From positions 279,619 to 337,967 of the forward strand of contig PS015039.1 in the NCBI GenBank assembly GCA_048213135.1: 58,349 nt of DNA, in the 5' to 3' direction. Within the stretch, counting starts at the first letter, position 1; the number at the start of each line of letters is the position of its first letter. Under the pieces are notes generated by a model. It made no database searches. It was not told where the DNA came from and saw nothing but the letters and a program-made list of their open reading frames with translations. This document shows positions 62 to 51,316 of this stretch, piece after piece. The position numbers and the translations under genes are program-made. This stretch comes from Reclinomonas americana ATCC 50394 (Eukaryota).

Positions 62-1753
62 AGTTCTTCCCCAAGTCGGATCCTCACTACGTGGCGGCCA
101 CTCACCTGCTGCGGCAAGTTGTACCGATTCTCAACAATGCCGCGCAGCGGTACGCACACATGCAGCAAGTGGAGTCGGCGGCCGCCAGTCCGTTGCGTCC
201 CTGCTTTGCATCGCGCTTGTGCCTGCGTGTATTGTCGTCTCATTTGTGCGGATTGGGTACAGTCTGCCTGGGCCATCCGGTTGCGTCGACATTTTGACTT
301 GCTGCGTTTGATTTTTTTGTTAATCCTAACTCACGTGCGAATCTTGTCGTTAGCAGTGGCAGATGCAGAGATGCCCTCGCTCCCTGTTCCAGGTGCGTGA
401 TTGTGGTGATGAAAGGAGTGATTTGTGGTAGCTCACCGGCAACGCATCTGCAGCTGTCCGAGAGATTATCGAGAGCGTCGATTCCGACACGGGTGAGTGG
501 CTGAGATTTACCGCTGCTCTCTCGCACTGATCCCTGCTGACCTTTCCCCGTCGCTGGCAGAGGGCACCGACTACGAGCGCGCCTTGCGCCGAACGGTGAC
601 GAAACTGCGCCGGTGAGTTGCCTTTGTTGTCTCCTTTCGTTGCATTCCTCACACGACTCATGACGTGCCCGCAGTCTCGATCGTCAAAAGTACTTTACGC
701 ACGCCGTGGTGACACGCGAGTATCCCGAGTACTACAAGGTCGGTTTCATTGTACCCGCCACATCCACCTGTTGTCTTTGTGCTCAACTGGTTGTTGTGCA
801 GCGCGTTTCGAAACCGGTGGACATTGGCACTGTGCTGCGTCGTGTTAACAAGGGTCGCTACAGCGACTACACCAGCTTTGTGGACGACGTGGTCTTGATT
901 AGCTCCAATGCCCTCTGTTGCGTCACAGTTGTTCACAATCGGTGCCTGTTGGTGCTGCTGACATGCCACTTGTGGTGTGCAGCGTTCTTCAGTCCCAACG
1001 AGGCTCGCTACCGTGCTGCTCGCCTTTTCTTCGAGGGCAGCATGCCCATTCTGGAGGAGGCGGCTCGAGAGTACGCACACCTGCCTGAGTTTGTGGGTGG
1101 TATGGACAAGGTCAAGAGGTTGCGTCACTTTTTCTTGTTTCGCCCGGGCAACGTAGCCGCGTGACTGATCGTATCGATTGTGTGCAGTGTTCTTGCTTCG
1201 CCACCGGATTCAATCGCACTGGCGCTGTTGGTGCCATCCATGGACGCGCCGCCGCCACCGCCACCGTTGCCAATGTCAGGTATGGGGTTTGACGAACACA
1301 TGTAGAGGGCTCCAATAGCGCAGAGTTCCAAGAATCACTCGTAGCATCTCACTTATCAGGAAACGGACAATGTCAATTCTGCTCTTCCCTTTTCCTTCCC
1401 CCTTCTCCTCCCCCNNNNNNNNNNNNNNNNNNNNNNNNNNNNNNNNNNNNNNNNNNNNNNNNNNNNNNNNNNNNNNNNNNNNNNNNNNNNNNNNNNNNNN
1501 NNNNNNNNNNNNNNNNNNNNNNNNNNNNNNNNNNNNNNNNNNNNNNNNNNNNNNNNNNNNNNNNNNNNNNNNNNNNNNNNNNNNNNNNNNNNNNNNNNNN
1601 NNNNNNNNNNNNNNNNNNNNNNNNNNNNNNNNNNNNNNNNNNNNNNNNNNNNNNNNNNNNNNNNNNNNNNNNNNNNNNNNNNNNNNNNNNNNNNNNNNNN
1701 NNNNNNNNNNNNNNNNNNNNNNNNNNNNNNNNNNNNNNNNTCCTACACATTTG

Positions 1754-1798
<45 letters not shown>

Positions 1799-4700
1799 CT
1801 TGTCACAGCCTTCTCCCCCGCCACCCCCAGAATGTCAAGCCGCGAGAGTCGCGACTCGCTGGGTGGTACGTTTGACTATTTTTGCGAGTGGGGTATTGCT
1901 CTCCCTCGAATGTGCTCATCATATCTGTCAACACAGGGCTGGAAGATCCCGCCAAGCCCAGGTCCGTGGCCGAGGACATTCTGAATCGCTGCTGGGAACG
2001 CATCAAGCGGTACGCTCTTCCGTCCCCCCCACACACTCGTGTCGTGTACTGTGGGATTGATCGCCTTCTTTTCCCCCCCGTTTCTCAGTTTCGACAAGGA
2101 TCGCTATTTTACGCACCCAGCCGAGAAGCGCCTGTATCCGCAGTACTACCAGCAGATCGCCACACCCAGTGATTTCCGCACCATTTGCACGCGCATCAAG
2201 CGTGGTCGCTATCCCAAGTTCCAGGCCTTCCAGACCGACATTCTCCTCATCTTCGACAATGCCATGTGTGAGTCGTGTGGATTCGCACGTTGCGCGCTCG
2301 GCTGTGACTCATTTCTCCTCTTGTGCAGCCTACTTCCCGCCGACTTCAGCGCAGTACATTGCGGCCGCCAAGATCCGTCCCATGGCCGTGAACATTCTCC
2401 AGCAGGCCAAAACAGAGTGGGACGAAGCACACAAGATCATCGATCCGAGTGCCATCACGAGTACCACGCCGTCGTCTGCTCGGTTCGTTGCACATACGTG
2501 TTCATCATTTCGCCTCCATTTTGTTGATTTTGTGTCTGCCGTCTGCAGCAAGGGTTCTGGATCCGATTCTGGAGTCTTGCAGTCGGCTCCGCTGCCGCTT
2601 CCTATCGGATGTGCGTCGTTTCTACGCCTTTTTCCCCACACAGAGACCGCTCACCGCGTCGTTGTTGTGTCGTGCGCAGTCAGCGAGCTGTCTATGGAAC
2701 AGCAGCAAGAGGCTCTCAGTGAGTCCCTCACCCATTTCCCACTCCTCTCGTCCACCATGTTGCTGACAGAAAACAATATGTGCAGACGCCGCAGTGCAAT
2801 GCATGCTTCAAAATGTTGACGGTGCGTATCAGTGGTGCTGTGTGCATGTGACGCTGTGTTTTTGCTCATCTGATGCCTTGTTTGTGACACAAGTAGCCGC
2901 GACCCTGGCCTCGATGAACAGTTGAGTGCAGATCGCACGCGTGTGTATATGAGTGCCATCAGAGTGCCCATCTTCTTACGCACTTGTTTGTTGTCGTGCA
3001 GTGAACCCGGATCTTGGTGTGTTTGAACGTGACATGCGCATGCTGATGTGCTCGATCCCTAACCCTTTTGTCGCATTCAAGCAGCCGCGCCGTTGCCGAC
3101 TCAGACCAGTTGCGTTTGAATCCTGTGGGTGTGCTTATTTTTTCCTCTCCATCTTCGGCAGCGTGTCGCCTTTCTCTGAATTACGTGGTGCAGCTCTTGT
3201 TTCTCCTTTTAATGTCTTCTCATCCTTTCTCTTGCATCTCCTCGCTCCCCTTGCGCTCACTCTATCCCGTCCACCACTTGCGCAGTCGAGGGTGTGCCGA
3301 TTACCGTCCCACTCCCCATGCCACCACCGCCGGATCTCACCGGCAGTGCGTCCGATCAACGTGCTGTCTCACAAGAGTGTCTATTCTGACATATTGTTCC
3401 ACCACAGTGGCCATCCCACCCACCGGTCCTCCATATGTCGACGTCCCTCCACGTGCGTCGTCGTCGCGTGTTCGTGTCTGTGCTGTCGTCAACTCTCGAC
3501 TGATTTCAATCATTCTTGCATTTTTCCAGTGCCCCCACCACCGCCGTCCTTGGACGACACTCCGGCGGCTGAAGGTGACGACGCTGCTGCCGCTGCTGCC
3601 ACATCCGCCGCGGCTGCGGCTGATTCCACGATGGGCCTGCTACCGCCTCCGCCGCCTCCACCGCCGCCGCCTCCTCCTCCACCACCTGCCGCGCTGGCCA
3701 TGTTGACCATGCTGCCGTTGTTGCAGTTACAGCAGAAGCGCCGGGAGAGCGAGGGCGGTGAGGAGATGGGAGTTGATCTGTCCTTGGTCGGTCTCCAGTT
3801 GCGTCATGTTCCCTCTCTGTTTGTGTTTTCGGTAGCTACTGGTCTCACTCGATGCTGGTGTGTTTCGTGCAGCGCTCTGACTTGTGCGTGCCAAGCGAAA
3901 TAGCATCGGTTCTTGTTGTTTTCCTTGTGCTCATGCTCTTCCTGTCACGCGCAGCGCGCATCCGCGATGACGATGCCGATGATTTGCAAGATGACAAGGC
4001 CATGCTGTTCCTGGACGATGAGGCTGACGAGAGTTACGTGCACACTGTTTCCCACCTTGCAACCATGTGCCTTCGCTCATTACACTCCCCGCTGCAGTGA
4101 GCGTCACGCAGAACATCTTCAGCCGCGCGCTCGCAGTCATGAAGCGGTTCGTCCATTTTTCTCCATTTTCATCAGCATCACCTGTCTCCTATTTGTGTTG
4201 TTCCTCTTGACCTATTCCCTCCTCTCCTTCTGCTCCCTCTTCCCTCTTCATCCTCATTATCTTACACATTTTCTTCTTGTCCTTCTTCGTTTTTTCTACT
4301 TCCTCTCTTTCTCTGCCTCTCCTGCCTCATCACCATCATCTCTCTCATTTCTTGTATTGCACCTCTTGCCCTTCTCCTTCTTCCTCGCCTTCTCCTTTTT
4401 CCTCGTCTCCTTTCTCGTTCTTCCTCCTTCTCTCTCGTTCTTCCCCTTCTCTCTCTTCGTTATCATCTTTTCACCTTTCTTCTTTGTTCCTCTTGTCCAT
4501 TTTCGTCTTTTTCTCTCCCTCTCCTTCATCATAATCATCATCATGTTTCTCATGTCTTGTGTTGTTCCTCTTGCCGTTCTCCTTCTTCCTCCTCGCTCTT
4601 CGTTATCATCATCTTTTCACCATTGTTCTGTTGTTCCTCTCGTTCGTCTCTGTCTTCTTCGTCTTCTTTCATTTCTGTCTCTGTTGTCTCTCCCTTCTCC

Positions 4701-6722
4701 TTGCCCCTCCCCTCACTCTCTCCTTCCCCCTATTCCCCCACGCGCAGCCAAGACCCGGAGAAGCACTTTACTGCACCGCTGCCGAAGCGCACCTACGCCG
4801 AATACTACCGGCGCATTCGCGTGCCGATGGACCTCGGCACCGTCACTCGCCGCGTCAAGAAGAACCGCTACAAGTCGTTCGAGGAGTTCCAGGCCGATGT
4901 GATGCGTGTCTTTGACAATGCGCAAAGCTTCTTCTCTGCCGGCGACCCCAAGTATGACACGGCGGTGCGCCTGCGTGCCGTCGCCACCTCCGCCCTCGCC
5001 ACGGCTCGTCATCAATTGGCGGCGGCCGGGCCGCAGAGTTTGCGGCAACAGCCGGTCGGGCCACTGGCAGAGTCACTCGAGTCCGCGTCACTCGAATCGC
5101 CGCCGGCCTCCAAGTCGACTCCGCGTGGACGCAAGAAGAAGACGTTTGCGATTGAGTGAGTGCCAAGTCATTTTTTCCCAGTTCTATGACTTGTGAGTTC
5201 GTTTCACTGACTGTGCGCATGCACAGATCACCTGGCCCACTGGATGTCAACTTGACCGAGTTCCAGTTGATTATGACGCGCCTGTTGGACCAGATGCGCG
5301 CCGCTGACGTGAACAAGTACTTTACGCGTGCCATCAAGAAGAATGCCATTGAAGGCTACTACGACAAAGTGCAGCAGCCGATGGATCTCAGTACCGTGCA
5401 GCGCCGAATCAACAAGCAGGCATACGATACGTTCGCGGCGTTCCGCGACGATGTCAATCTCATCTTCCAGAACGCCCTCTGTTGCGTCACGTGTTCCCCC
5501 CCCCCGCTGCACTGTGGGATCGGTCTCGTCTCATGTTGATTTTCGTTGGTGTATCGGCAGCGTTCTTCGCGCCAACACATGAGCGCTATGTGGCGGCCGT
5601 GCACATGCAGGCTTTCTGTCGAGCGCTGATGGACGGGACTGTGCACGAGCACGCAAACGAGGCTGGTTTCGCGTACCGCATGGAGTACGCGGTGCCGCCG
5701 GGCTCGCAGCGCAAGCCGTACATGTTTCGTTGGCATATCGTGTCTTTCCCTACTTTCTTGTCTTCGATACTCACGCGTGTTGGTGATGTCTCCATCATCA
5801 CAGGCGCAAGAATGGTCGCAAGTCTGGTGGTGGCGACGGCGACGGCGCCGACGATGATGATGATGATGACGACGACGAGGGAGATTCATCCGACAATGAC
5901 GAGGTGGAGAGATTCGGTGGCAAGCGCAGGCGTAGCCGCAAGTCCTCTCGTGACAACGACAGCGACGAGACCGAGGACGACGAACGGGAATCCTCCGGGC
6001 GTAAGAGTCAGTCGCGTCGCTCTGGCCTGCGCGCTCCCTCTCAGCGCCGTCAGACTCCCAAGGCTAGCAAGAAGACCGAAAAAGCGGACGATGTGACTGT
6101 TGAGCCGCCGCCGCTGCCATTCATGATACCGATGCCGATGTCGCTGTCACTGCCACTGCCGCCGCTGCCGCTTGATGGTGAGTGTCACAGCGACAGGAGT
6201 CTTTCGTCCTTTCCGCTTGTCTTTTGCCTCCATTCTGTTCTCAAATATCCATTGTCACGCAGTTGCACATCGCATGGACACTGACATTCCGGCTCCCGAG
6301 GAAGTGATGCCGCCGGACGATTTGCAGCAGTTCCTGGTGGATACGTTGAACGAAATCAAGCTCCTCGACCAGTCGGCGTTCTTCATGTCGGTCCCTGACA
6401 AGAACCGCCACGCCAACTACTACCTGCGTGTGCCGCAGCCCACCGATCTTCACACCATCATGCACCAGGCCATGGCACATCGGTATGCGACATTCGAGGA
6501 CTTCCGTGCCGATGTCATGCGCATATTTTCCGACGCGAGAGGTGAGACCAAGGAGAATCAGCGCCCCGCAGTCTGCCTTTGCTTTCTTCTCACCTGCGCC
6601 CTCTTGTTGTTGTTGTTGTAATAATAATAGTCGGTTTCGAGTCATCGGCGCCCGAGTTCAGTGCGGCCATCTCGCTGGAGGCTACTGTGGGAGATCTGCT
6701 GGCCAATCGCGCACATCGCATT
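62..6722 (+). CDS. Multi-bromodomain protein region (at least 6 bromodomains, Pro-rich and acidic linkers), 5' end outside the window; probably continuous with ORC2
   Basis: Spliced exons give repeated bromodomain motifs: YPEYYK|RVSKPVDIGTVLRRVNKGRY..NAL (~570-1070), YPQYYQQIATPSDFRTI..FDNAM (~1970-2430), YAEYYRRIRVPMDLGTV..FDNAQ (~4100-5010), GYYDKVQQPMDLSTV..FQNAL (~5260-5640), NYYLRVPQPTDLHTI..FSDAR (~6320-6710), plus the C-terminal helix of another repeat at 62-150. Linker exon boundaries are approximate. Confidence 0.9.
4148..4747 (+). repeat. Pyrimidine (CT)-rich low-complexity intron splitting bromodomain 4
   Basis: GTTCGT donor after ..VMKR and CAG acceptor before QDPEKHF. The intervening ~600 bp is almost all C/T on the + strand. 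Confidence 0.8.
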
Positions 6723-6852: not shown

Positions 6853-9255
6853 ATGCTCGAGGCGGAGCTGGCCAAGGCTGCTTCGCAAGTGCAGGAGCAA
6901 GCGGCCGCGCTGACCGCCGGCAACAAGCAGGAGATGTTTGACCGATGGTCCGCTGACTTGAGGTGTGTCCCTGGTCAGGCGCCTTCAAATGAGCAGTAAA
7001 CTAGAAGCCTGCTTTTTTCTCTCTTTCCGCCGAGCTCTGCTCTTTTTGCTTTTGTTCATTTGTGTGTTTTGTGTGCGTTTGTGTTTCTCTCCGCGCGTAG
7101 ACGGCACAATGTTCTCGTGTACGGATACGGCTCCAAGCGGGCGCTGTTGGAGGAGTTTGCGCAACACAGCGCTGCCGCCGCCTTCCATGTCGTCGCCGTC
7201 AATGGGCTTGTCCGTACCGTCGGAAAGCAGGTGCTTTTGTTTGCGTCGCGCATTTTCGAACGCCCAACGAATGCTGACGAAAGTGGCCACTCGATGCACA
7301 GCTGTTTTCGATGTTGGCCGACCAAGTCAGAGTTCCCGTGCATGCCGATCCAATGATCACCGCCACTCGCGTGTGTGATGCTCTCCTGGCCCCGATCGAC
7401 GGAGCCCCACAGCCGGCTGGTTTGTGGCCCCCTTCGCCTGCATTTAGCTGCTTGCACGATACTTAATGTTGCGGCACCTGCACTCGTAGGTCCTTCGGCA
7501 CAGTACGACAGCCTGCAAGCCGAGTTGGTGGCCATTCACCAACAGCTCACCGGTGCGTATTGTTGTTGAATATCTATCCGTGTTCTTCTCGGCTGGTGTT
7601 CACTCTTATGTGTTGCAGTCGACATGGACCGCCTGGCGAGTCAGCGTCGCAGTGGTGCGGATGGCGATGACGACGGTGAGGATGAGGAGGAGGACGANNN
7701 NNNNNNNNNNNNNNNNNNNNNNNNNNNNNNNNNNNNNNNNNNNNNNNNNNNNNNNNNNNNNNNNNNNNNNNNNNNNNNNNNNNNNNNNNNNNNNNNNNNN
7801 NNNNNNNNNNNNNNNNNNNNNNNNNNNNNNNNNNNNNNNNNNNNNNNNNNNNNNNNNNNNNNNNNNNNNNNNNNNNNNNNNNNNNNNNNNNNNNNNNNNN
7901 NNNNNNNNNNNNNNNNNNNNNNNNNNNNNNNNNNNNNNNNNNNNNNNNNNNNNNNNNNNNNNNNNNNNNNNNNNNNNNNNNNNNNNNNNNNNNNNNNNNN
8001 NNNNNNNNNNNNNNNNNNNNNNNNNNNNNNNNNNNNNNNNNNNNNNNNNNNNNNNNNNNNNNNNNNNNNNNNNNNNNNNNNNNNNNNNNNNNNNNNNNNN
8101 NNNNNNNNNNNNNNNNNNNNNNNNNNNNNNNNNNNNNNNNNNNNNNNNNNNNNNNNNNNNNNNNNNNNNNNNNNNNNNNNNNNNNNNNNNNNNNNNNNNN
8201 NNNNNNNNNNNNNNNNNNNNNNNNNNNNNNNNNNNNNNNNNNNNNNNNNNNNNNNNNNNNNNNNNNNNNNNNNNNNNNNNNNNNNNNNNNNNNNNNNNNN
8301 NNNNNNNNNNNNNNNNNNNNNNNNNNNNNNNNNNNNNNNNNNNNNGGAGGATGAGGACGACGAGGACGGCAAGGATGCTGAGGATCGAGCACGGGAGCGT
8401 GTGCACAGGCTGCAGCTGCTAGAGTCGGCACACTTGCGCGAACGCAAGGACCTGTTGTTGGTGATCCACAACTTGGACGGCGACGGCCTTCGCAGTCGCT
8501 CTATCGAGGCCGCGCTGGTGCGCCTGGCCACGTGCCCGCGGGTGCACCTGTTGGCCAGCATCGACAATGTCAACAGTGGCCTGAGTTGCGACAGAGTGAG
8601 AGAGTGAGAGGTCTGTTGGCAGTTACTGATGATTGATGCTGGCAGTCTTCGAGTCGGGCAACTGGCACCGCGGTCACTGGGTGTGCCACCACGTCGACAC
8701 CTTCCAGCCGTACACGGCCGAGCTCGGTCGGGAATGGGCCGTGCATTTCACTGCGGCTCCGGAAACCAAGAGCGGGTGCGGTTATTCGTTGTTTCTGCAG
8801 CGCGCTGCTGCCATGTAGCTGATGACTGTTGCTCGTGCGTGCGACACCACCACACAGCGGTGGCGCCAGTCGTGTGTTGGCCACCCTCACGCCAAACCAC
8901 CGAAAGATCTTCCGTGCGCTGCTGGAGATGCTCCGCGAACAAGTGGGTGATGGTCACGAGACAAAAGATGTGGGCGGTGAGAAAAGCGCATGGTGTATGA
9001 TGGTTCTTCTTCTTCTTCTTCTTCTTCGACGGCTCATTCGTGTGCCGTGCAGTGGACTACGCCGAATTCCTGGAACGGTGTCGTGCTCAATTCACCGTGA
9101 CCAGCAGCCGCGATCTGGATACGAAGCTGCGCGAGTTTCTCGATCACAAGATGGTGGCCAAGCGCACGGCGCGCAACGGACGTGCAACGTTGTTCGTGCT
9201 GCTGCCACGTGGCGAGCTCGAGGATGTGGAGGCCACACTCAACGACAATCGATAA
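6853..9255 (+). CDS. ORC2: Origin recognition complex subunit 2 domain (multi-exon, N gap inside)
   Basis: ORC2 motifs in order: FDRWSADLR|RHNVLVYGYGSKRALLEEF, LLLVIHNLDG..LR..LASIDNVN, WVCHHVDTFQPYTAE, VLATLTPNHRKIF, CRAQFTVTSSRDLDTKLREFLDHKMV; TAA ends at 9255. Confidence 0.93.
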
Positions 9256-10639: not shown

Positions 10640-10647
10640 GAAAGGAG

Positions 10648-10723
<76 letters not shown>

Positions 10724-31414: not shown

Positions 31415-32231
31415 AGCCGTGCCTGTGCACTGAGCACCAAAGCGTCCAGCGGCGCAGCTGCCACAGTTGGTGCCCGCAAAGGGGAACGGGCACTGCACGC
31501 ACGCCACTGTGAGCATGAGAGAATTTCTCCGAGAAGCACACACACACTCTCTCTTTTCTCTCTCTCTCTCACGCAACGTAGCAAGTGCCATCATTCAAGC
31601 ACAGACCGCGACCGCTGCAGGTGACGGCGTCGGTGCAAGCAACGGGATTCTGCACGTACTGATCGGGGCCTTGGCCACAGAACGGGTGACCGGTCTTCTT
31701 GTAGTTCGGGGCGCAGACTTCGCAGTTGGCGCCGCGGTACTGCCAGACAACAAACACCACAGACGGTGTACTAATGTGAGAAAACAAGAGATACTACCTT
31801 AGGCCATCATGATGCGCATCATATCACCTGGATGTTGCAGACACAGGAGCCATTGACACAATTGCCGCCGGGTTGGCTGCATTGCGTGCCACTGGTGCAT
31901 GCACCGCCTGCGGGAGGTGCGCAAGAGCAGTCATGAAATGGCACAGCAGCAAAAAAGAGACATAGAGAGCGACGTACCTCCTGTCTGCGCAGTGACGTGT
32001 GTCACGACCAGCAACACCAAGAATGCGGCACTGCGAGAGAGAGAGAACACACACAACACACACGCACACACACGCAAGACGATGAGTGAGACACGGACAA
32101 ACAGTGTCGTGTGTGTCCTGGGAGCCAGAGGGCACGCGCTCGCACCCTGCACAACAAGTGTCAGCAAGGGCACAAGAAAGAGAGAGAATGCAAAAGAGAG
32201 ACGCACTGAGAGTAATGACACGGCTGTGCAT
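26744..32231 (-). CDS. Secreted PhoD-family alkaline phosphatase with N- and C-terminal EGF-like repeats (start codon uncertain)
   Basis: PhoD motifs FPQSVASGDP, LQPNTTYYYQF, VGRFKT, CQDWSDNHW, FVLHLGDYIYE, IWDDHEFSND, MLGKPQREWL, DGWDGYATER, VVLTGDLHS, EFVTPGMSS. EGF-like CSGRGLCLNDGTCYCPFPFAGTNC at the N-terminus and GRCSGSGACICNAGWKGADC* at the C-terminus. Confidence 0.92.
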
Positions 32232-39412: not shown

Positions 39413-39448
<36 letters not shown>

Positions 39449-42400
39449 ATTCAGCTCGCGNNNNNNNNNNNNNNNNNNNNNNNNNNNNNNNNNNNNNNNN
39501 NNNNNNNNNNNNNNNNNNNNNNNNNNNNNNNNNNNNNNNNNNNNNNNNNNNNNNNNNNNNNNNNNNNNNNNNNNNNNNNNNNNNNNNNNNNNNNNNNNNN
39601 NNNNNNNNNNNNNNNNNNNNNNNNNNNNNNNNNNNNNNNNNNNNNNNNNNNNNNNNNNNNNNNNNNNNNNNNNNNNNNNNNNNNNNNNNNNNNNNNNNNN
39701 NNNNNNNNNNNNNNNNNNNNNNNNNNNNNNNNNNNNNNNNNNNNNNNNNNNNNNNNNNNNNNNNNNNNNNNNNNNNNNNNNNNNNNNNNNNNNNNNNNNN
39801 NNNNNNNNNNNNNNNNNNNNNNNNNNNNNNNNNNNNNNNNNNNNNNNNNNNNNNNNNNNNNNNNNNNNNNNNNNNNNNNNNNNNNNNNNNNNNNNNNNNN
39901 NNNNNNNNNNNNNNNNNNNNNNNNNNNNNNNNNNNNNNNNNNNTTGTGCTGTGGGGAGTACACGTGATACGCTTTAGTCGAACGCATGCATGGAACAGAG
40001 CAACAATTGTTTCGCGACGCGCAACACACACAGACCATTCAGCTCGCGCACTTCCGATTCCTGACGTGCTGCTCCAACATAAGACACACATTCACGTTGG
40101 TGGTCCATTGCATGCAAGCCAGATCTAAAGTGTGTGCACGAGATGCTCACCTTGTGACGCCTCACGCTCCTTGGCGGCTTGGGCCAGTCGCGCTGTGGGG
40201 AGTACACGTGATGCGCTTTAGTCGAACGCACGCATGGAACAGAGCACCAATAGCTTCGCGAGGCGCAACACACACAGACCATTCAGCTCGCGCACTTCCG
40301 ACTCGGATTCCTTTTGACGTGCTGCACCAACACAGACACACATTCACGTTGGTGATCTGTTGCATGCAGGCCAGAGTGCGTACATGAGGTGCTCACCTTG
40401 CGACGCCTCACGCTCCTGGGCGGCTTGGGCCAGTCGCGCTGTGGGAGTACACGTNNNNNNNNNNNNNNNNNNNNGCACGAGGTGCTCACCTTGCGACGCC
40501 TCACGCTCCTTGGCGGCTTCGGCGAGTTGCGCTGTGGGGAATACACGTGGTATGCTAAATGAGCAGCCGACAGCGCGGACCGGTGACACACGTACAAATG
40601 AATATACCTTTCAAGTCGCGCACTTCCGTTTCAGACTGCGCCAGGCGGTCTGCAGCGGCATAAGGACATGTTAGAGCCAACCAAGTGCGTCAATCTGGGC
40701 GGCTCATGGCAACAGGCACACGCAACGCTGCAGATCATCGTTCTCGCGATTCTTGCGCTCCACAGACCCTGTACATCGACCAGTATCAGCACATGGAAAC
40801 GAATGGAATCCTCAGCTGCATGTCACGCACCCTCGGCCTGCAGCAAGCGCTCCTGCAGTGACGCCAGGATCTCTGTATAGAACAGAATCGGTGAGCAGGA
40901 CAACACATCATGTCTCACGATTAACGCAGCACTAATGCACCAGTGTGCCTTCGCGAATTATCTATTCGCCGAACACGCGACACCAAGGTGAGCCGAGTTA
41001 CTCGTCACCAACGGTGCAGCGAATCAGTACCGCACCTTGCTCCTGATGTTGATGCATGGCCACAGTCGCATATGCATGCAGAATCTCCACCTCGTCGCGG
41101 AGCGCTTGCACAAGATGACGGAGCTCACTGTTCTCCTGGGTAAGCTGGCGGACCTGTGATGGTCGACAGAGGAGGGTTGAACGCGCTGGACTCATTCTGT
41201 AACAACAGCTTTCTGCAATACCGCACCTCGGTCTGCCACAAACAAACACGCACATATATAAGGATGAGACAAAATAAAGTTGCTTCAAAGTCGGCGACTG
41301 CCAAACTCACCCTCGCCATCTCCGCCACTGTAATCTGCATCGATCACCACAGTTTATGGGTAACAAGAATGCACTCGGCAAAAGGCGATGAACGAGTCTT
41401 ACCGTCTTGCAAGTAACCCGATCTGGAGAGCTTGCAGCCGGGTCAGGAGAGCTTGCAGCCTGGTCAAAGTCATCCTCCTGCGAACACATATTACTCAGAA
41501 AAATGAGACGGAAAAGAGAGAGATTCGGATGAACCAGTGTGCGCTGACGCCGCACTGGATCATCGCCTGCTGGCGATGACCTCTCCATCGCGATCGTGCC
41601 AGCCTGTGGCTCGCCAGTGTAAGCGCACGCACCACATGCACCATGGATCCGACTCCGACAACTCACTGCTGCATCGTCCATCGGTTCACCGATCGCGACG
41701 ACACTACCCGAGCGAGAACTGGACACGAAGCGCTGCACATCCATGGCGCGCGTATCGGTGCTGACGCAGAAAACCTGCCACATCGCGCGCGCGTGAGCAA
41801 GAGACTTCACGGAAAGGAGAGAAGCGCACAGGGATGCACACCGTCTGCACTCGAGGCATCGGCTCGCTGACAAAGCCGGTGAGCAGATCCACGACATCGT
41901 GACAGTACGGACGGATGGCCTCCGTCTGCGCCTCGTGCATGCAGTGCACTTCATGAAATAGCGCAGCACGGAACGCACTGTCGGCTCCTGCAATGGTGGA
42001 TGAGCATCGTGCCACACGACCGCGTCGATGACAACAAGTAGAGACACACCATCTGTGTCGCACACCACGAGATCACTGATTGTTGTGCCGCGCTGGTCCA
42101 TGTCGGCACTCGTCACTGCAGAGCAATGTGAATAGAGAGAAGATCTAGAGTACCGCGATACCGCGTGTCGCGCGCACGCAACTCTCAAAGCGCACAGTCA
42201 CCACGCGATGACGCAGGTGTGCCGTGCGACCGAGCAGTCCGCGATTCTGCACGCCAATCTGGCGGATATCATCGATGAGGCTGCGCACACCCGACCACCA
42301 AACTCAGCAACTCGCATGCCTAATAGGTCTGCGCGACAATCTACCGACCTCTTTGCCGTCTTGGGAGTCAGCGAGGTGAACTCGACGACCGCTGCCTCTC

Positions 42401-43348
42401 GTGCGCCCTTGTGCACAAAGGCAGGCCACTCGGCAGAGCTCAGCACCGGGCGCACCGGAACAAACGGCAGCTCATCCTGCAGCAATGACGAATAAGAAGA
42501 ACACCGGGCGCCCCCTCACACTACAAGCAGCACCGCATGCGCACCTGCTGCCCGATGGTCAGGAGCTCGTAGGAGAAGCGCTTTGGCTGACCGACAGCAT
42601 CGACTGCCAGCACCGACACCTGCTCACACATGCATCAGCTCACAAGTGTACAGCCCACACCGACAAGAGCTCCCCCCCATGTGTACGCAACGCTCTGCAC
42701 GCGCTCCGACGCCAGCATGCGATCCACAATCCGGCAGACGACTCCTGCATCCGGCTGACCCACTGCTCCATACAACTGATCGGTCTTGCCCGTGCGGACT
42801 CCACCAATGCTCATCAGCATAACACGGGCTGGCTCTGTAGCACAAAGCCACTCGACAGAGCGCGTCACCAGCGCCTGCCGATATATGAATATTTGAATTG
42901 TTGTGCAGAAAAACGGAACAATAATGCACAATCATGTTCCGCAACTGTGGCGTCGTCGGCCTCGTCGGTGGTCTTGTGTGCCGGGGAGACCCACATGTGC
43001 AGGTGCGGGCATTCTAGAACCTCCAGCAACTTGGATTTAGCCGGTTCTAAATCCAACCCGGTAACCTTAGCGCACGAACGCATGACGAGCTCTTTGCGTC
43101 GAGCAGACTCGCGGACGTGAGTGGGCGTGTACTCGGGGGCAGCAACCCCCACCTTGGTGTGACTCCTAGGGGTGCGTGGCTGCAAAAAGTGGGATTGTGA
43201 GTGTGATGTCGCGATCGGAAAAGTGACATGGCATGTCGAGCGCGTGGAATGCCCGCGAAACTTGCGCCGCAGCGGAGCGGTCGTTGGGGCTAGCCACCTG
43301 TGCATCAGCGGCGGCGGAGAGCGGCGACGAGTCGCTCGCGGAGGCCAT
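37211..43348 (-). CDS. Tandem paralogue (copy 2) of the degenerate kinesin / coiled-coil / Ada-like Zn gene, with expanded coiled coil
   Basis: 40600-43390 is closely similar to 34087-37080, including introns and the identical GGVRTGKT. Tail VYFTQYGSKYHMIPDC..TCTHC* is homologous to that of copy 1. Confidence 0.65.
37860..40550 (-). repeat. Tandem array of ~220-250 bp exon-intron units (at least 10 visible copies, gapped)
   Basis: CCTTG(C/T)GACGCCTCACGCTC..GGCGGCTTGG.CCAG recurs near 37867, 38116, 38337, 38566, 38811, 39050, 39296, 40150, 40396 and 40490. On the minus strand each copy is an AG/GT-bounded exon encoding ARLAQAAKEREASQ or a variant. Confidence 0.92.
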
Positions 43349-43582: not shown

Positions 43583-44619
43583 TTACTTGTCGCCGCTGTC
43601 GCCACTCGGCCCCGCTGCAGCATCGCCCTCTGGTGAGGATGCCACCTTCGGCGCCCCGCCTCGCGACGATCGGGAGCCCGAACCTGAGCCTGCAGCCGCT
43701 GCCGACTTGGCCGAAGGAGGAGGCGCCGCCGGCTGTGTGGTGGGATAGCTATCGATCTGCGCGTGCATTCTCAACGTGGTTAGTAACCACACCGATCGCG
43801 ATCGAGCGACCTCACTCACCACCAGCGTGACCGGCCCGTCGTTCTCGATCTTGACATTCATCATGGCACCAAACACACCATCTGGCACGGTAGTTAAGCA
43901 CACTGTACCACTCCCCCAACAACCCATCATGTACGCATACACGCAGTACCTTTGACCTTGTCCGGCTCATACGCCTCACGCACCATGCGCACAAACTGCG
44001 CGTAGAACTCGCGCGACTCGTCGCTCTTCATCGCCACATGAAAGTCCGGCTTGTACCCTGCGACCCGTCAGCCGCCCTCACTCTCTCACACACCATGCAT
44101 CCACACTAACCCTTCTTGGTCGACCCATACAACGTGAACTGCGACACCAGCAGCACCTCCAATCCCAAATCCTTGACGGACTTGTTCCACCACCGACCGC
44201 CCTCGTCCTCAAACATGCGCACCTGAAGCAGCTTGCGGCACCTGCATCACTGACCACAGTCACAAGGCGAGCGAGGGAGGCCACAGACAACGACAAAGCG
44301 ACACAAACAGTTGCTCGGCATCCTCCATGGTGTCGTCACGCGAGATGCCGACCAGCACATTCAAGCCTACGCACACCACATGCACAGTGACACACACGTC
44401 GACTTTTACTATGCTGTTCGCGCGCATACCTCGTCCAATCTGTGACACCACTTGTCCATCGACCTCCTGCATGCATGCTAGTGAGCGAGCGTGTGAGTGC
44501 ATCGTGGGCAGCAGTGGCACGCAACGACAGAGGACGACAAGACGCGTTGCAGAACCAGTCTCTGTGTGTGCAACAGTGAGCATCGATGCAACACAGTCGT
44601 CACTGCGCTCACACACCAT
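43583..44619 (-). CDS. DTD1: D-aminoacyl-tRNA deacylase
   Basis: [71 protein letters not shown]: the SQFTL and Gly-Pro motifs are present. Confidence 0.96.
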
Positions 44620-45766: not shown

Positions 45767-45792
45767 TATAGGCAGTGATTATTATTGTCGCG

Positions 45793-48700
45793 CTACTTCA
45801 AGTCGGCCGGAGGCGCGCGTGACAGAATCCAGCGCGACAGGGATTTCGACAGATCGTCCCCGATCACCCACTCCAGGCCATTGGGTTGCAGATGCGGGCG
45901 GCCGCCACCACCGCCCCCACCTCGCTGGCCGCCTCCACCGCCGCGCCATTTCCCGCCGCGCCATACGCCACCTGTGGCCGTGTCTTGTTGCGAGCGCAGA
46001 GCAAAGGCCACAAACTGCGCCGTGTACAGATCGACGCCTGGCGAGGTGGTGCCGAGCACGTCCACCTCGACAGCAAAATTGGTCTCATCCACGCACTGCG
46101 CCCACTGATCGCCACTCCATGGCATCGGGCGGTGGAAGAACGGATCGCCCGGCAGCATCAGCCCCTCGACAAACATGGACACCTGCATAGCGAGTGCCTC
46201 CATGGCCATGGCTACTGTCGTCATGTCTGCCGCCTGAATGCGGTCCTTGGTAGACGAGTCTCCTTTGCTGGCTGCAGCAGCCACCCTCCACTCGCCGCTG
46301 TCAACTGCTGCCGACGACGACGACGACCCGCGGCCACCACCGCGACCACGACCACCTCCACGACCACCGCGAGCCGAAGCCGGACGGGAAGCGGATCCGG
46401 GCGCAGCCACGGTGCTCCACTCGGTTGCATCGCTGGCAGGAGCCGGAGCCGGAGCCGGAGCAGCGGCGCTTGCTGGACGCTGTGCGTTCGATGGCGGGGG
46501 TGGAGCAATGTCTCTGCTCGACCGATATATTGATGAGGAGGAGGGGATTGCGATCAACGACAACAGTGTGGGTGAGACGCACGGTCGGATGCGATGCAGC
46601 ACGTCCTCGAGGTTGTATGGCTCTGTGTCGGGGTACTGCGGGCGAGTCTGCAGCACTCGGTCGCAGTACTTGAGCAGTGCCCACACAATCGACAGCTTCG
46701 GTCGCATCAGCGGCATGGTGAGGCACAATCGCACACACAGCAGCACCAGAAGGTCCTCCATCATGGCGGTCGACTCCAATCGTGAGTACACCTCCGCGGT
46801 GAGCTGGACATCGCCGCCTGCCGCCCCATGCAGGATCCACCACAAGCATGCCCATCTGTGCATCAACAGCGCACGAAGAATAAGTCGTGGGGTGAGCAGG
46901 CACTCCAACTCGTCGCACGCACCGATCGGCAACCGGCCGGCGCAGCAGGCCCACTACGTCGCGCACTTCAAGTGCGAAGCCTGTGCGTGGAGCTGCAGCG
47001 ACCTTGTTCCCCTGGTAGACGTCGTACGACACGGCCAATTCGGTGACAGCTGCAGCAGCGACAGCAGCAGGTTGTCAGCCAGCCACACAAGGATGAAGAT
47101 GTCATTGTGCACGTACCCGAGTCAACTCCGCAGACAATAGAGTAGAAGCGCTTCCTCAGCGGCACAAAGCGGTTGAATAGCAGACCATTCTTGCGCGACT
47201 CAAAAAGAAGCGGTGACCACCATTCACGCTCGCCGAGTACTGCGCGAGCAGTGAGTATCACAACGGCCACAACAATCAACCAAGAGGCGACGACTGACAA
47301 ACCAGAAATCAATCGTGGCGACACTTTGGCCGTCTCGTAGCACTCCACCAATCGTTCAATCAACTCCGCTCGGCCCTCCTCGTCAGCACCACCGCATGTC
47401 GCCAGACCGCTAGACAAAACTCGGCGCATCTCCGTGTGCGTCTCCTCCAGTTGCGTAATGTCGTACTGATTGCGCGACGTCAAAATCATCTCTGCCCCGC
47501 ACCAGCGATAAGCAACTCGTGCCCGACTCTGCGTGTGCGCGTGCACAAGCGTACCCATGTTTCGCGCGTTGGCCAGATCACCGAGCACAAGGCGCAGAAA
47601 CTTTTCAGGATCACCCTCGTACAACTCGGCAATGCGAGCCGCCGACTCGCGCAGCTGATTGGCGACCCTACGAACATGGGTGGGTCGCGAGACGACGAGA
47701 TGACGAATGTCACACACAGGATGGCGCCGCACCTGGAACCGGGGCCTCGGGATTCGTTAAACAGCCGATCCTGGATGCGCTGTTGCAGTCGTTTGTCGAT
47801 GCGATCGTTGCCGACGAGCGCGGCGAGCATCAACAGCTCCTGCGTGCACACACAGTACACGAGTGAGGAAAAGCTGCGCGGCACACGATACATCACTCGG
47901 ACGAAACCTCCACGGATGCAAGTCCCAGTCGTTCGAGTGTGAACGCGGTGGTGAAGCGCCAACACACCAGTTCACCCTGCGTGCCGACAGCCAGCGAGTC
48001 AATCGGGATGAACCCGGCGGTCTGCATGATCAGAAAGTCCGAGTCGTTGCCCACGACACCAAAGGCACCGATCCTGCAAGCAGCAGATGAGTGGCGAATG
48101 GAGCAACTCCTTGACGTTCCCCCGCATGCACGCAACTCGACAGCGTACTTGGCCACCAGAGCGTCGGCCTCATACGCCGCCTGCACGACTTGCACGCCGC
48201 ACTCGATGAATGCGTGGATGCATTCCAGCTACAATGCCAGGAAGTGGTACTGAGAAGCTGGACGAAAAGAGCGACAGGCATGGACAGAAGACAAACCAGC
48301 ATGCAGCAAGGAGGCACAAACTTGTCAGTGCGCGGCATGAGGCCACGCACATGCAAATCCTCTGCAGCCTCGCATGCTTTCTCATACGTCGCCTGTCGTC
48401 GACTGATTCCCGTGGCAATCTGAACAACAACAACAGCATTCAGTGGCGCAAGGCGACTGACCGACTTGCGAGTGAGCAAGAGACCTTCTCGTGCGGAGTC
48501 ATTCCATCAAAGAAGACCACCATCTCGACTCCACCATCGCGCACAATCTGCACCAATGATCGCACGCGTTCTCTCAGTCTCGCATACTCGCCACCATACG
48601 CGAATGACAGAGGTCCACTGGTGCACAAGCGTGAGATGAGATGAGACAATGGAGAGGAGAGAGAGAGACGCACACATCGCTGCCTGCTGCACTGGGGAAC

Positions 48701-48890: not shown

Positions 48891-49213
48891 CAAACACAAA
48901 CTGGAAGACGGAGGGCAAACAATGTTCCGATTGTCCTCTTTGTGAAAAAGCATGGACCCGAGAGTGCACTACCCAGCTCTATGCCTTATGTACAATTATA
49001 GATGCCGATTCTGCGGAGAGAAAGAGAGAGAGAAGAGCAAGTGGCTCGACGTCGGAAGTCGACGTCGCGGATACCTCCACACCTGGCATACCAACGCCCT
49101 CGTGTCTCGTTCGCGACACCATTGCTCATTACACTGGAGCATACCACGGAGCAGCAATGCACAGCAGCTTCTCAACTTCGCACATACTTTCCCGCCATTT
49201 CTCATCTGATCAT

Positions 49214-51316
49214 ATGCGACGCGCGCGGGTTGTTCTTCCGGTGCTCGTTGTCTGCTCATTGCTGCTGGTGTGCGCTGTGTCACTGGTCACTGCCACTGAA
49301 GAGAGTGCATACCCCGCATATGCTGCTCGCTGGTCAGTCACTTCTGCTCTCTCTGTCTCTCCCACGCACACTCTCACTCTCTTGTGTCGCAGGCGCTTTG
49401 ACACGACCTTCTCTGTGCGCGATGTGGTGAATGGGCAACCGACGACCATCCGCGGCAGTGTGACTCTGCGAGAAGGCGATCAGATTGATGAGGTGGTCGA
49501 GCGAGCGATGCGCGACAAGTCGGTTCCGCAGCGCTTGTCGTGGGTTCCGTCCATGGTATACCGCGATTCGTCGCGCTTGCTCACGGCCAGTCGCAAGAAG
49601 GCAGCTGCTGCTCGTGTGCTGGAAGTTGCGTTGAATCGGGGGGAAGAGAGCCGAGCCTGTGACAGTAGCTGACGGTGCTTGCAGAGCAATGAGCAGGCGA
49701 CTGCGGGGCTTGGTGGGCACACAGAGTCGGTGCTGCGGTCGCGTGGTGTTCACGAGCTGACGGGTGATGCGAGGGCGCAGTGGGCGGCGGATTACGAGAT
49801 CATGGGCGTTGAGTGATGTGATCCGAGGCTCTCTGTGGTCGCTGCTGTGCTGACGATGGCGCGCGCACACAGAGACCGCTGATGCAGACGACAATCACCA
49901 AGACGCAGCCGCCACTGATCCTGTCGGTGATGCACAACGAGCAGACAGTGGTGTGTTATCATACATGTGTGTTCGTGTGGGGTTGTCTGCGGCAACTGAT
50001 TGTCGCTGCGCGTGTGTGTGCAGATGTTGTTGCGAAGCGGATTGTGGGCGCAAACCGAGACCGCCGTGTTCCACCGCATCTTGCACGAGCGCTGCAAGCA
50101 GCAGCCGGCACCACTTGTCATCGACGTTGGCGTTGCGTGCACTGGCATGCTGTCGTTGTTGTGTGCTTCGATGATGTTCACTGCGGGGTTTGTGCAGGCC
50201 AACTTTGGTTACTTTGGACTGATGGCGGCCTCGCTCGGCTGCCGTGCGTGGCTGTTCGAGCCGATTCCCTCGCTGGCGTCACTAATCCGCTTCAACGCCG
50301 CCCTCAACGGTCTCGAGGGACTCGTGCGCGTGTTTGAGAACCCCGTGATGAGCAAGAGCGGCACGCCGTATGTTCTCATCACCGAGGTACGATGGTTGCG
50401 AGACTGCATGTGTGTGTTCACGTCCAACGACTCATTCCATCGCGTGTGTTAGACATTCATGGGCAGTGCTGTGCGCCCAGCTGACGCTGGCGAAGAGCCC
50501 GACATCGAGTCGGTGGCACTGGAGGATTTGATCGACGAGGACGTGCTGCTGATCAAGATCGATGTCGAAGGCCTGCAGCAGGAGGTGTTGCAGGGAATGG
50601 AGGGCCTGTTTGCCAAGCACCGCGTTCACAACGTGGTCATTGAGATTCTTCCGGAGCACGTGGTACGTGTGCTGTGCTTCCTTTCGCAATCATTCTATCA
50701 TCGCGTCCTCATATGAGTCGATACAGGTGCCGGTGGCTCGACGCACGCCACAACGCGACTCCATTGAGTGGCTGTGGACACACTTTGAGAAGCAGGGTGC
50801 TGTGCGAGCCGTCAACTGGCGCGAGGAGTATCTCACGCGTATTCCGCCCACGTTTGACTTTGACCCCAAGGTATGTGTGTCTCTGTCTCTCCTGGATTGC
50901 CAAGTATCTCTGTCTAACTGATTACTGGGTGCAGAATCAATGCAACGTTGCGCACCGAGCACGTCCCGATCTCACACACGTCCCTGGTTCGTAAACTGAT
51001 TGACTGCCATTTCCTCCCACAGATGGTGGAAATGGAGCGTTCGTGGAGTCACGTGACGCAACCAGAGGTGTGGTTTACCTCCGACGTGGAGGAGATTGAG
51101 CGCCTCGGCAAGCCCAAGTCCCCGCTGCCGGCTGGCGAAGACGCCGATCTGAATCCCGACTGCTTCTTCCGCCAGCACCAGCTGTATCGGTTGCGTGCGA
51201 GCAGCAGGGCGCGCACAGAGAGAGAGAGCGCGCGTGTCCGTTCTCACTTCATCACATCACATGTCTGCAGATATCCCTACTTTGAGGCCGATTACTGGAA
51301 GTCTCTGACGGCTTGA
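49214..51316 (+). CDS. FkbM-family SAM-dependent methyltransferase with signal peptide
   Basis: VIDVG|ANFGYFGL..AWLFEP, LLIKIDVEG.QQEVLQG, VVIE; hydrophobic N-terminus VVLPVLVVCSLLLVCAVSLVTA. Confidence 0.9.

Follow-up and report, generated by a model that had tools for sequence, protein, structure and literature searches.

Few bases of the spliceosomal donor are as well conserved as the G at intron position +5 and the G that ends the exon (position -1), and the canonical 5' end of U1 snRNA reads ACUUACCU. To our knowledge, demonstrations of out-of-register donor recognition are limited to about 1 percent of human sites, obtained minigene by minigene. The closest described system is the shifted (+1) register of U1 at atypical human 5' splice sites, attributed to Roca and Krainer (2009) in PMC4856993, where all validated non-canonical registers together amount to about 1.5% of 201,541 human sites. 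The same article describes a bulge +2/+3 register from the Roca laboratory, with 68 predicted human sites, of which 54 survived curation. A preprint (bioRxiv 10.1101/2022.06.08.495308) describes in Entamoeba a U1 5' end, AACAAAC, that co-evolved with GUUUGU donors, in Mastigamoeba a candidate U1 with ACGUAC, i.e., G at position 5, and in Thecamonas and Mamiellales a standard U1 despite a preference for C at +4, so C can be favored at +4 without any alteration of U1.

A stretch of 58,349 nucleotides from Reclinomonas americana ATCC 50394 (contig PS015039.1), hereafter the window, carries many introns that begin with GTTGCG(T) and resemble the human shifted-register sites in that the intron opens with GU, the remaining donor consensus is delayed by one base, the position of the exon-final G is taken by the first intron G, and U1 binding and the cut site would be uncoupled by one base. 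They differ in frequency, since all validated non-canonical registers in humans together reach only about 1.5% (PMC4856993) whereas one class makes up about 16-26% of introns here; in form, the word being a near-fixed GTTGCGT whose GCG core is not one that textbook U1 would be expected to favor; and in the kind of evidence, which consists of suppressor-U1 proof in humans and of donor statistics here. The likeness to the human bulge +2/+3 lies in the parsing of GTTGCGT as GU plus one additional U plus the +3 to +6 consensus, but a bulge is disfavored in this case by the composition of the exon side and by a third base that is always T. With Entamoeba and Mastigamoeba the window shares a lineage-wide donor preference off GURAGU with a pyrimidine at +4, and the GCG core would be accounted for if U1 carried G at position 5 as in the Mastigamoeba candidate; each of those lineages shows a single transformed consensus, whereas here two registers coexist. 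Out-of-register donors are a rarity in humans, whereas the window uses a single such word routinely. Among the matches listed in the literature for GTTGCG or GUUGCG as a splice donor, only primers and unrelated matches appear.

Abundance and specificity of the GTTGCG donor

The heptamer GTTGCGT occurs 39 times on both strands of the window, an approximately threefold excess over chance, as 100 dinucleotide-preserving shuffles gave a mean of 12.77 copies (sd 3.62, max 24) and none reached 39. In a donor-agnostic parse, in which the gene finder demanded GT alone at the intron start, GTTGCG is the commonest donor hexamer, accounting for 28 of 247 introns (26 of 239 unique ones) where 2.8 are expected, and the earlier note was thus right to single it out as a recurrent donor. 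The coding model was seeded from Pfam matches, as all ORFs of at least 120 codons (169 ORFs, 90.6 kb) proved too noisy, and every junction reported here is derived from coding potential and homology. The hexamer is selected specifically: 26 of its 84 copies in the window serve as donors in the agnostic parse, compared with 0 of 12 for GTAGCG, 1 of 83 for GTCGCG and 1 of 69 for GTGGCG, which is not the behavior of a generally degenerate donor, the outcome that the earlier note had regarded as fatal to its proposal.

A donor-aware parse accepts 29 of the 39 GTTGCGT copies as donors and leaves the other 10 uncalled. The share of GTTGCG among introns is 11% in the agnostic parse, which is a lower bound, 16-17% in the donor-aware parse and 26% among donors decided by homology (9/34). 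By gene models and homology the class comprises about a sixth to a quarter of introns (roughly 1 in 5), and the earlier description of GTTGCG(T) as a common, discrete class beside GTGCGT and GTGAGT holds by all three estimates. An unsupervised mixture fitted to the agnostic-parse donors likewise separates a component G|GTG[C/A/T]GT (weight 40.6%) from a component GTTGCGT preceded by a base other than G (weight 15.3%). Introns of the GTTG[CA]G type are listed below with gene handles.

GTTGCGTCA intron, 917..982, + strand: g01 bromodomain, tct|GTTGCG...GCAG|cg, phase 1; both parses and paralogue
GTTGCGTCA intron, 5481..5560, + strand: g02, same bromodomain position as 917..982; paralogue alignment
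GTTGCGTCC intron, 192..262, + strand: g01; donor-aware parse only
GTTGCGTCG intron, 280..356, + strand: g01; donor-aware parse
GTTGCGTCA intron, 1119..1187, + strand: g01; preceded by an exon-final G; both parses
GTTGAGTGC intron, 2921..3001, + strand: g02; rarer GAG core; donor-aware parse only
GTTGCGTTT intron, 3109..3285, + strand: g02
GTTGCGTCA intron, 3798..3872, + strand: g02
GTTGCGACA intron, 8585..8645, + strand: ORC2-like gene g04; both parses
GTTGCGTGG intron, 13265..13325, - strand: Mon2/Sec7-like gene g07
GTTGCGCAT intron, 17062..17176, - strand: thioredoxin-like gene g09; both parses
GTTGCGTCA intron, 17461..17571, - strand: g09
GTTGCGCGA intron, 19755..19824, - strand: g11
GTTGCGTCA intron, 26920..26985, - strand: g15
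GTTGCGTCG intron, 27130..27203, - strand: g15
GTTGCGTTT intron, 28336..28530, - strand: PhoD-like gene g16; best donor, margin only 2.3 bits
GTTGCGCCC intron, 28738..28812, - strand: g16; best donor by 8.5 bits
GTTGCGTAC intron, 29883..29946, - strand: g16; best donor by 8.5 bits; homologues gapless at YRDF|LFG
GTTGCGTTG intron, 30138..30199, - strand: g16, interrupts VI|WDDHEF; best donor by 25.7 bits
GTTGCGTGC intron, 30541..30634, - strand: g16; margin only 0.5 bits
GTTGCGACG intron, 31023..31093, - strand: g16; best donor by 17.9 bits
GTTGCGTGA intron, 31493..31577, - strand: g16; both parses; unconserved region, homology not decisive
GTTGCGTGT intron, 34495..34571, + strand: g18; exact duplicate at 40650-40726 (-)
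GTTGCGTGC intron, 42116..42182, - strand: g21; the paralogous copy in g19 (donor 35839) has GTTGTG
GTTGCGTAC intron, 42620..42691, - strand: g21; duplicate at 36271-36342
GTTGCGGAA intron, 42875..42945, - strand: g21; paralogue at 36526-36627
GTTGCGTGC intron, 44467..44525, - strand: D-Tyr-tRNA deacylase gene g22; donor-aware parse only
GTTGCGTGC intron, 48074..48136, - strand: g24
GTTGCGTTG intron, 49625..49684, + strand: methyltransferase-like gene g25; homology not decisive
GTTGCGTGC intron, 50132..50197, + strand: g25, interrupts DVG|ANFG; best donor by 17.7 bits; homologues align on both sides
GTTGCGAGA intron, 50395..50466, + strand: g25; uncertain, the competing donor at 50410 scoring 4 bits higher
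GTTGCGTGC intron, 51190..51270, + strand: g25; both parses; homology not decisive
GTTGCGGAT intron, 52786..52846, - strand: P5-type ATPase gene g26; best donor by 32.3 bits
GTTGCGTGC intron, 52949..53032, - strand: g26, within conserved QFF|YIDL; best donor by 13.7 bits
GTTGCGTAT intron, 55979..56040, - strand: g26; best donor by 11.3 bits
GTTGCGTCG intron, 56523..56579, - strand: g26; best donor by 9.7 bits

The window also contains an inverted duplication (34.1-36.9 kb and 40.5-43.3 kb), which accounts for 2 exact repeats among the 43 rows of the full catalogue.

Homology evidence for the junctions

In three genes (g16, g25 and g26), homologue profiles were used to score every in-frame GT..AG alternative lying within 45 bases, which decided the donor in 34 of 71 introns. 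Nine of these 34 donors are GTTGCG, each best by 8.5 to 32.3 bits and distributed over three unrelated genes, and no GTTGCG donor was decisively rejected in this test; 9 of the 18 GTTG[CA]G-type donors in the same genes were left undecided by homology. The cut before the G of GTTGCG is fixed by homology at 9 sites and by bromodomain paralogues at 2 more, so that conservation places cleavage at the GT that opens the word. Splicing out 917-982 and 5481-5560 restores N-A-L-S-F-F, which aligns without gaps to an uninterrupted paralogous bromodomain of the same gene (NAQSFF), while a further paralogous bromodomain carries tgt|GTGAGT at the equivalent position (intron 2268-2328). For 50132-50197 (+), the spliced protein scores 222.4 bits and the intron-retained one 204.1 bits. 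The exon 50198-50394 used alone as a homologue-search query returned no matches, and the read-through ORF 50000-50449 returned 118 among representatives. A cut displaced by one base in the 3' direction (G|TTGCG), paired with an equally displaced acceptor, was rejected, since most sites lack a G directly after the acceptor and a tryptophan would replace the serine conserved in the bromodomain paralogues. In-frame read-through is impossible for 31 of the 41 unique GTTG[CA]G introns of the donor-aware parse; in 30541..30634 (-), for instance, it meets an in-frame TAG formed by the last two exon bases and the first donor G.

Fifteen sites had been named in the earlier note: the agnostic parse recovered exact boundaries for 10 and the donor-aware parse called 14, the one left uncalled being 21520. 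The intron at 21520 escapes modeling because it enters an N gap at 21658, and the Pfam Seryl_tRNA_N match stops at 21518, just upstream.

It is extremely unlikely, and largely refuted, that no real class exists and that chance, gene-model error or mobile introns sharing their ends produced the pattern. The duplicate copies and the 10 uncalled GTTGCGT copies would fit such an explanation; the enrichment over shuffles, the nine homology-decided junctions in three unrelated genes and the 31 introns that cannot be read through oppose it, as does an all-against-all blastn of 236 unique introns, which revealed no similarity between GTTGCG introns beyond paralogues and simple repeats.

Shifted register or bulged base

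The exon side of the junction distinguishes the two intron kinds. Among donors decided by homology, an exon-final G precedes 0 of the 9 with GTTGCG and 20 of the 25 others (p=3.8e-5), and in the agnostic parse 3 of 28 compared with 45 of 64 (p=8e-8); in the donor-aware catalogue the figures are 4 of 41 GTTG[CA]G donors and 37 of 58 perfect ordinary donors (p=3.6e-8), although that catalogue scored positions -3 to -1 and may inflate the effect, whereas the agnostic and homology sets are unbiased. Compensation for an otherwise strong donor does not account for the missing G, given that perfect ordinary donors still retain it at this high frequency. When exon positions -3 to -1 are scored, the ordinary matrix moved by one base fits best (log-likelihood -166.8), a flat matrix follows (-174.2) and the unmoved matrix is worst (-206.0). 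On the intron side, T is used exclusively at +3, the GC core is present in 27 of 32 shifted donors and 28 of 80 ordinary ones (p=2e-6), and +4 G, +5 C and +6 G each reach about 90% or more in the GTTGCG class, whereas ordinary donors are loose.

The earlier note had described the donor as GTGCGT with one extra T, which implies a bulge: U1, and later U6, would pair with +1 G and +2 U, one U at +2/+3 would bulge, and GCGU would fill +3 to +6. Such an arrangement keeps the +1 and +2 pairs, has been validated experimentally in human cells at a few dozen sites (Table 3 and Figure 1C legend of PMC4856993), and is the modeled minimum-energy structure for 7 of 41 donors when U1 carries G at position 5. 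However, it predicts a preference for -1 G, which is depleted in all three sets, it corresponds to the unmoved matrix, and it would tolerate any bulged base although T alone is used; it is accordingly considered quite unlikely, and the data favor displacement of the whole signal. A shifted register, with U1 pairing one base downstream, fits better because -1 G is depleted, +3 is only T and the moved exon matrix performs best, although 4 of the 41 shifted donors do follow G. Taken as one account, it is on balance probable that the GT-AG introns of the window fall into two discrete kinds, a loose G|GT[G/A][C/A/T]GT and a sharp H|GTTGCG(T) (H being any base but G), that the latter is read in the shifted register, and that both are spliced by one U2-type machinery.

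Under this account, the U1 5' end would engage GTTGCGT just as it engages G|GTGCGT. The role of the exon-final G would fall to the first intron G, the obligatory +2 T would face the usual partner of +1 G as a mismatch, and TGCGT would occupy positions +2 to +6. U1 would sit one base downstream of its usual place, and the later steps (U6, U5, Prp8) would cut at the sole GU, one base upstream of the position set by the U1 register. Because the shifted register would lose pairs, its core would have to be optimal, GCG almost always.

Pairing with U1 and alternative readers

In a nearest-neighbor duplex model, the canonical U1 5' end binds the shifted donors at a mean of only -1.5 kcal/mol, with no consistent register, and favors GUUGAGU (-5.1) over GUUGCGU (-1.4), the opposite of the observed preference. 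With a modeled U1 that has G at position 5, 23 of 41 donors take the shifted register and 7 of 41 the bulged one as their minimum-energy structure. Since textbook U1 hardly pairs with GTTGCG sites in these calculations, an altered or second U1 is predicted; within the model, the plain shifted register combined with textbook U1 is insufficient, and the weak duplexes are consistent with the variant U1 or U6 snRNAs considered in the earlier note. The C preference in the core suggests a reading RNA with G where textbook U1 has pseudouridine. The T-only third base and the GCG core thus yield a concrete prediction on the U1 5' end of this organism. An Rfam search of the window found no snRNA genes at gathering scores and, at E up to 1, only 4 irrelevant sub-threshold matches (mir-3149 on both strands of a CA/GT-rich stretch and two bacterial sRNA models).

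One alternative invokes two reading RNAs, in which case GTTGCG introns would be a donor class apart, recognized by a second U1-type snRNA or variant gene copy that complements GUUGCGU at every position, for example through A in place of C opposite +2, alongside the ordinary U1. The discreteness of the class and its far sharper motif agree with this proposal, and a hypothetical 5' end ACGCAAC would bind all 41 shifted donors in one register at -11.3 kcal/mol, against -5.9 for ordinary donors, in the same model. Motif sharpness is, however, equally expected if a weaker register needs an optimal core, and the Rfam search offers no candidate in the window, which leaves the proposal rather unlikely. 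Recognition mainly by other means, through a protein factor, U6/U5 contacts or a U1-independent route with GTTGCG as the binding word, appears very unlikely. The very poor modeled pairing of canonical U1 in any register would suit it, and the motif behaves as a fixed word instead of a graded match. Against it, the word differs from the ordinary consensus (G-GTGCGT) by one change, and the exon-side statistics track the ordinary matrix moved by one base, which together indicate the same reader; moreover, no motif 3' of the donor is enriched beyond what 254 tests allow (best 4-mer p=0.002).

Implications for splicing and annotation

If about 1 in 5 introns carry one sharp out-of-register word, the organism would offer a natural test system for asking how the place of U1 binding sets the cut position and how large an offset U6 and U5 accept. 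In annotation, a gene finder that has learned ordinary donors will place about a fifth of the junctions of this genome wrongly. A bolder interpretation, which we hold to be doubtful, is that two donor codes operate in parallel, with a U1-type RNA, either dedicated or retuned, that matches GUUGCGU and serves about a quarter of introns; together with this, it predicts an RNA with the core ACGCA followed by A or C. If true, U1 binding and cut site would be routinely offset by one base, and a third, donor-defined class of spliceosomal introns would stand beside the major and U12-type ones.

Relation to mobile and U12-type introns

Introner-like mobile introns occur in some algae and fungi, and the GTTGCG introns recall them in that many share a conserved start. 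Introner copies are, however, alike along the body, whereas the introns here show no likeness past the first 7 to 9 bases, and a mobile origin was rejected; intron-body pairs share about equally few 8-mers (0.086 per pair for GTTGCG, 0.051 for ordinary introns). U12-type introns have an RTATCCTT donor and a TCCTTAAC-like branch site near the acceptor. The GTTGCG class resembles them as a minority class whose donor word is far more rigid than that of the majority, but it lacks a TATCCT donor, its branch motif, distance and acceptor are ordinary, and its share far exceeds the 0.36% that PMC4856993 gives for the U12-type class in humans; the U12-type assignment was likewise rejected. The longest perfect complement between donor and intron body averages 4.05 bases in GTTG[CA]G introns, 4.03 in ordinary ones and 3.6 after shuffling, giving no sign of a donor hairpin particular to the class.

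As nothing is shared beyond the donor and all other features are ordinary, the introns belong neither to a mobile family nor to the U12 type. Median length is 72 bases for GTTG[CA]G introns and 69 for ordinary ones, the median distance from the branch motif CTSAY to the acceptor is 22 and 23.5 bases, respectively, and the acceptor is CAG in 41 of 41 GTTG[CA]G introns.

GTTGCG donors as a recurrent intron class

Introns beginning with GTTGCG are confirmed as a real and abundant class in the window. The heptamer GTTGCGT occurs 39 times there, against 12.77 expected (sd 3.62) from dinucleotide-preserving shuffles, none of 100 of which reached that number, and most copies are followed by a CTSAY branch-like motif and a CAG 55-115 bases downstream. 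The intron catalogue was produced by a dynamic-programming gene finder; its coding score was a three-periodic Markov model seeded by the Pfam-matched parts of ORFs, its acceptor and branch model was learned, and its intron body model left out the first 10 bases. With the dinucleotide GT as the sole donor requirement (the agnostic parse), five rounds yielded 247 introns, among which GTTGCG was the commonest donor hexamer (28, against 14 for GTGCGT and 12 for GTGAGT). It accounts for 26 of the 239 unique introns, where 2.8 would be expected from random GTs, which bears out the recurrence proposed in the earlier note. Donors were called at 26 of 84 GTTGCG copies (31%), compared with 0/12 for GTAGCG, 1/83 for GTCGCG and 1/69 for GTGGCG.

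Fitted without supervision to the agnostic donors, a mixture of two matrices and a background component separated G|GTG[C/A/T]GT (weight 40.6%; G at -1 in 73%) from non-G|GTTGCGT (15.3%; G at -1 in 13%), and the remaining background component (44%) is taken to represent misplaced donors. When this mixture was fed back (the donor-aware parse), 249 introns were obtained (GTTGCG 40, GTGCGT 29, GTGAGT 23), and GTTG[CA]G opened 41 of 236 unique introns (38 GTTGCG and 3 GTTGAG), 31 of these 41 permitting no in-frame read-through. The share of the GTTGCG class is thus 11% in the agnostic parse, a lower bound, 16-17% in the donor-aware parse and 26% among donors decided by homology. Three more donor-like GTTGCGT copies, at 16380 and 16549 (-) and 21171 (+), were not included in the counts, as they border on N gaps or precede the coding region of the model.

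Homology test of splice junctions

Genes were identified from Pfam matches on 257 ORFs of at least 100 codons in the window.

Genes of the window
1-6.8 kb, +, multi-bromodomain gene (Pfam)
about 7-9 kb, +, ORC2 (Pfam)
8.3-14.1 kb, -, Mon2/Sec7-like gene (Pfam)
15-21 kb, -, thioredoxin-like genes (Pfam)
21.3-24.8 kb, +, seryl-tRNA synthetase (Pfam)
28-33 kb, -, PhoD-like phosphatase (Pfam)
43.6-44.6 kb, -, D-Tyr-tRNA deacylase (Pfam)
49.2-51.3 kb, +, methyltransferase-like gene
51-58 kb, -, P5-type ATPase (Pfam)

Homologues were gathered by single-ORF queries, and exons were joined in scripts. All GT..AG alternatives that kept the frame, had no stop and lay no more than 45 bases from either end of an intron were scored with a profile HMM built from the homologues, and an intron was considered decided when its best donor stood at least 5 bits above every other donor. 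Across the P5-ATPase, PhoD-like and methyltransferase-like genes, 34 of 71 introns were decided, nine of them (26%) in favour of GTTGCG, and none of the 71 yielded a decisive rejection of a GTTGCG donor.

The P5-ATPase profile (17 of 24 homologues) decided 23 of 38 introns. All four GTTGCG donors were best (56579, 9.7 bits; 56040, 11.3; 53032, 13.7; 52846, 32.3), with junctions lying in gapless alignment, e.g. QFF|YIDL. A different acceptor scored higher for three introns (56822, 54633 and 52669), and one ordinary donor prediction was overturned, from 55917 to 55887: use of the GT at 55917 loses 12 conserved residues, and homology (28.7 bits) gives intron 55819-55887 (-) the donor cag|GTTAAC, which is nearly devoid of the consensus. 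A further 19 bases downstream there is a perfect GTGCGT, out of frame.

In the PhoD-like gene, for which all 9 homologues entered the profile, 10 of 23 introns were decided, four for GTTGCG (31093, 17.9 bits; 30199, 25.7; 29946, 8.5; 28812, 8.5); four more GTTGCG donors stayed undecided, those at 28530 (2.3 bits) and 30634 (0.5 bits) falling below the margin and those at 31577 and 32816 lying in unconserved sequence. The methyltransferase-like profile (70 of 118 matches, those of 220-460 residues) decided one intron in 10, the GTTGCG intron 50132-50197 (17.7 bits), which splits DVG|ANFG. This intron can be read in frame, but with it retained the match falls into two parts and scores 204.1 instead of 222.4 bits. 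The five remaining GTTG[CA]G donors here all stayed undecided; for the donor at 50395, the alternative 50410 scores 4 bits higher, below the threshold.

The one or two genes at 1-6800 (+) carry a run of five or more bromodomains, with five ORFs matching Pfam PF00439. The five align without gaps, and four have an intron at the same codon. Splicing at 917 and 5481 yields NALSFF, where an uninterrupted paralogue reads NAQSFF; at the same position another of the domains has tgt|GTGAGT and yet another, as read by eye, gag|GTGAGA.

Comparison with ordinary introns

Apart from the donor, GTTG[CA]G introns are no different in kind from ordinary ones, and their branch and acceptor signals are ordinary.

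GTTG[CA]G introns (41) and ordinary GTRNGY introns (106)
Median length: 72 bases; 69 bases (p=0.20)
Branch motif: CTSAY; CTSAY
Median distance from branch to acceptor: 22 bases; 23.5 bases
CAG acceptor: 41/41; 98/106

Because length, branch and acceptor resemble those of ordinary introns, the class is not U12-type. GTTG[CA]G introns have no sequence in common after their opening 7 to 9 bases, save in paralogous copies and simple repeats, which rules out an introner-like family. Neither donor-to-body complementarity nor an extra motif downstream of the donor was found in these introns. Ordinary donors are very loose past G|GTG, with homology-supported GTGCAG, GTGATT, GTGGGT and GTGAGA, and G at +4 is almost absent from them (1%).

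Register of the donor: shift or bulge

The earlier note described the motif as GTGCGT with one extra T. Such a donor might be read with that T looped out and the remainder in the usual U1 register, or with U1 paired one base downstream. The bulged base is left free in a bulge register, and any base is possible there. A shift requires T at the third position because U1 A7 would have this base, a U, as its partner, and in the GTNGCG comparison of the agnostic parse the third base of the class is T and nothing else. In a shifted register, the first intron G would stand in for exon -1, T would be forced by the GU rule and TGCGT would follow; GTTGCGT is exactly the motif predicted by a one-base shift.

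The exon side points the same way. G at -1 is found in 0/9 homology-decided GTTGCG donors versus 20/25 others (p=3.8e-5), and in 3/28 versus 45/64 in the agnostic parse (p=8e-8). A strong intron side compensating for the missing G is ruled out as an explanation, since G is depleted even relative to perfect ordinary donors (GT[GA][CA]GT), which keep it in 37/58 cases versus 4/41 for GTTG[CA]G (p=3.6e-8). For exon positions -3 to -1 of GTTG[CA]G introns, moving the ordinary matrix one base along gives a log-likelihood of -166.8, compared with -174.2 for a flat and -206.0 for the unmoved matrix. The bulge is disfavoured by the -1 G depletion, the moved matrix and the T-only third base; among the ways in which the class might be recognised, a shift by one base has the best support.

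Among described mechanisms, the closest is the shifted register that some atypical human donors use (reference 10 of PMC4856993). According to the figures given in PMC4856993, all validated non-canonical registers in humans make up about 1.5% of 201,541 sites, and the bulge +2/+3 register 54 to 68 sites, whereas one such class accounts for 11-26% of introns in the R. americana window. A literature search on the GTTGCG motif at donors returned nothing relevant among the matches listed.

Candidate readers of the GTTGCG donors

Compared with ordinary donors, the shifted class is much more constrained: GC forms the core dinucleotide in 27/32 cases versus 28/80 (p=2e-6). The canonical U1 5' end is ACUUACCU. 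Duplexes were modelled by nearest-neighbour energies that counted pseudouridine as U and took no account of proteins.

Mean duplex energies by U1 5' end
Canonical, AUACUUACCUG: ordinary donors -6.4 kcal/mol; shifted donors -1.5 kcal/mol, no consistent register
G at position 5: ordinary donors -8.4 kcal/mol; shifted donors -5.3 kcal/mol

On consensus strings, the canonical end gives -5.1 for GUUGAGU and -1.4 for GUUGCGU, the reverse of the observed 38 GTTGCG to 3 GTTGAG. With G at position 5, 23 of the 41 donors have their minimum in the shifted register and 7 in the bulged one, and a hypothetical 5' end complementary to every base of GUUGCGU reaches -11.3 on all 41 shifted donors. The prediction from this modelling is that the organism has a U1 with a changed 5' end or carries a second variant of U1. 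An Rfam search found no snRNA genes in the window. As reported in bioRxiv 10.1101/2022.06.08.495308, a candidate U1 of Mastigamoeba has G at position 5, and other lineages with C at +4 have a standard U1. The reader of GTTGCG donors may be a retuned U1, a second U1 or something else.

Intron density and other features of the window

The window comprises 58,349 bases, including 16 N gaps (5,198 N in total), with a G+C content of about 55%. Intron density is extreme, at 249 modelled introns per 29,169 coding bases (about one per 117 coding bases), and introns are short (median about 70 bases in the gene models); 38 of them fall within the 7.4 kb of the P5-ATPase model. The 3' ends of the convergent methyltransferase-like (+) and ATPase (-) models overlap by about 400 bases (50914-51316), and the tail of the latter past about 51.4 kb, without homology support, is probably wrong.

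A coiled-coil/P-loop-like gene lies in an inverted duplication (34087-36940, +/-; 40475-43348, -), which may be recent or an artefact of assembly. Its copies have identical introns (34495 = 40726; 36342 = 42691) and diverged ones, with GTTGTG at 35839 versus GTTGCG at 42182. A gap-interrupted tandem array at 37770-40454 (-), in which a pair of short exons with introns recurs at a period of about 245 bases, codes for repeats such as ARLAQAAKEREASQ... A sub-threshold Rfam match to mir-3149 (14486-14617, both strands) falls on intronic, CA/GT-rich, self-complementary simple sequence and is judged a composition artefact. Within the bromodomain gene, a CT-rich low-complexity stretch of 600 bases (4147-4746, +), part of which the model took as coding, looks like a single long intron starting gcg|GTTCGT.
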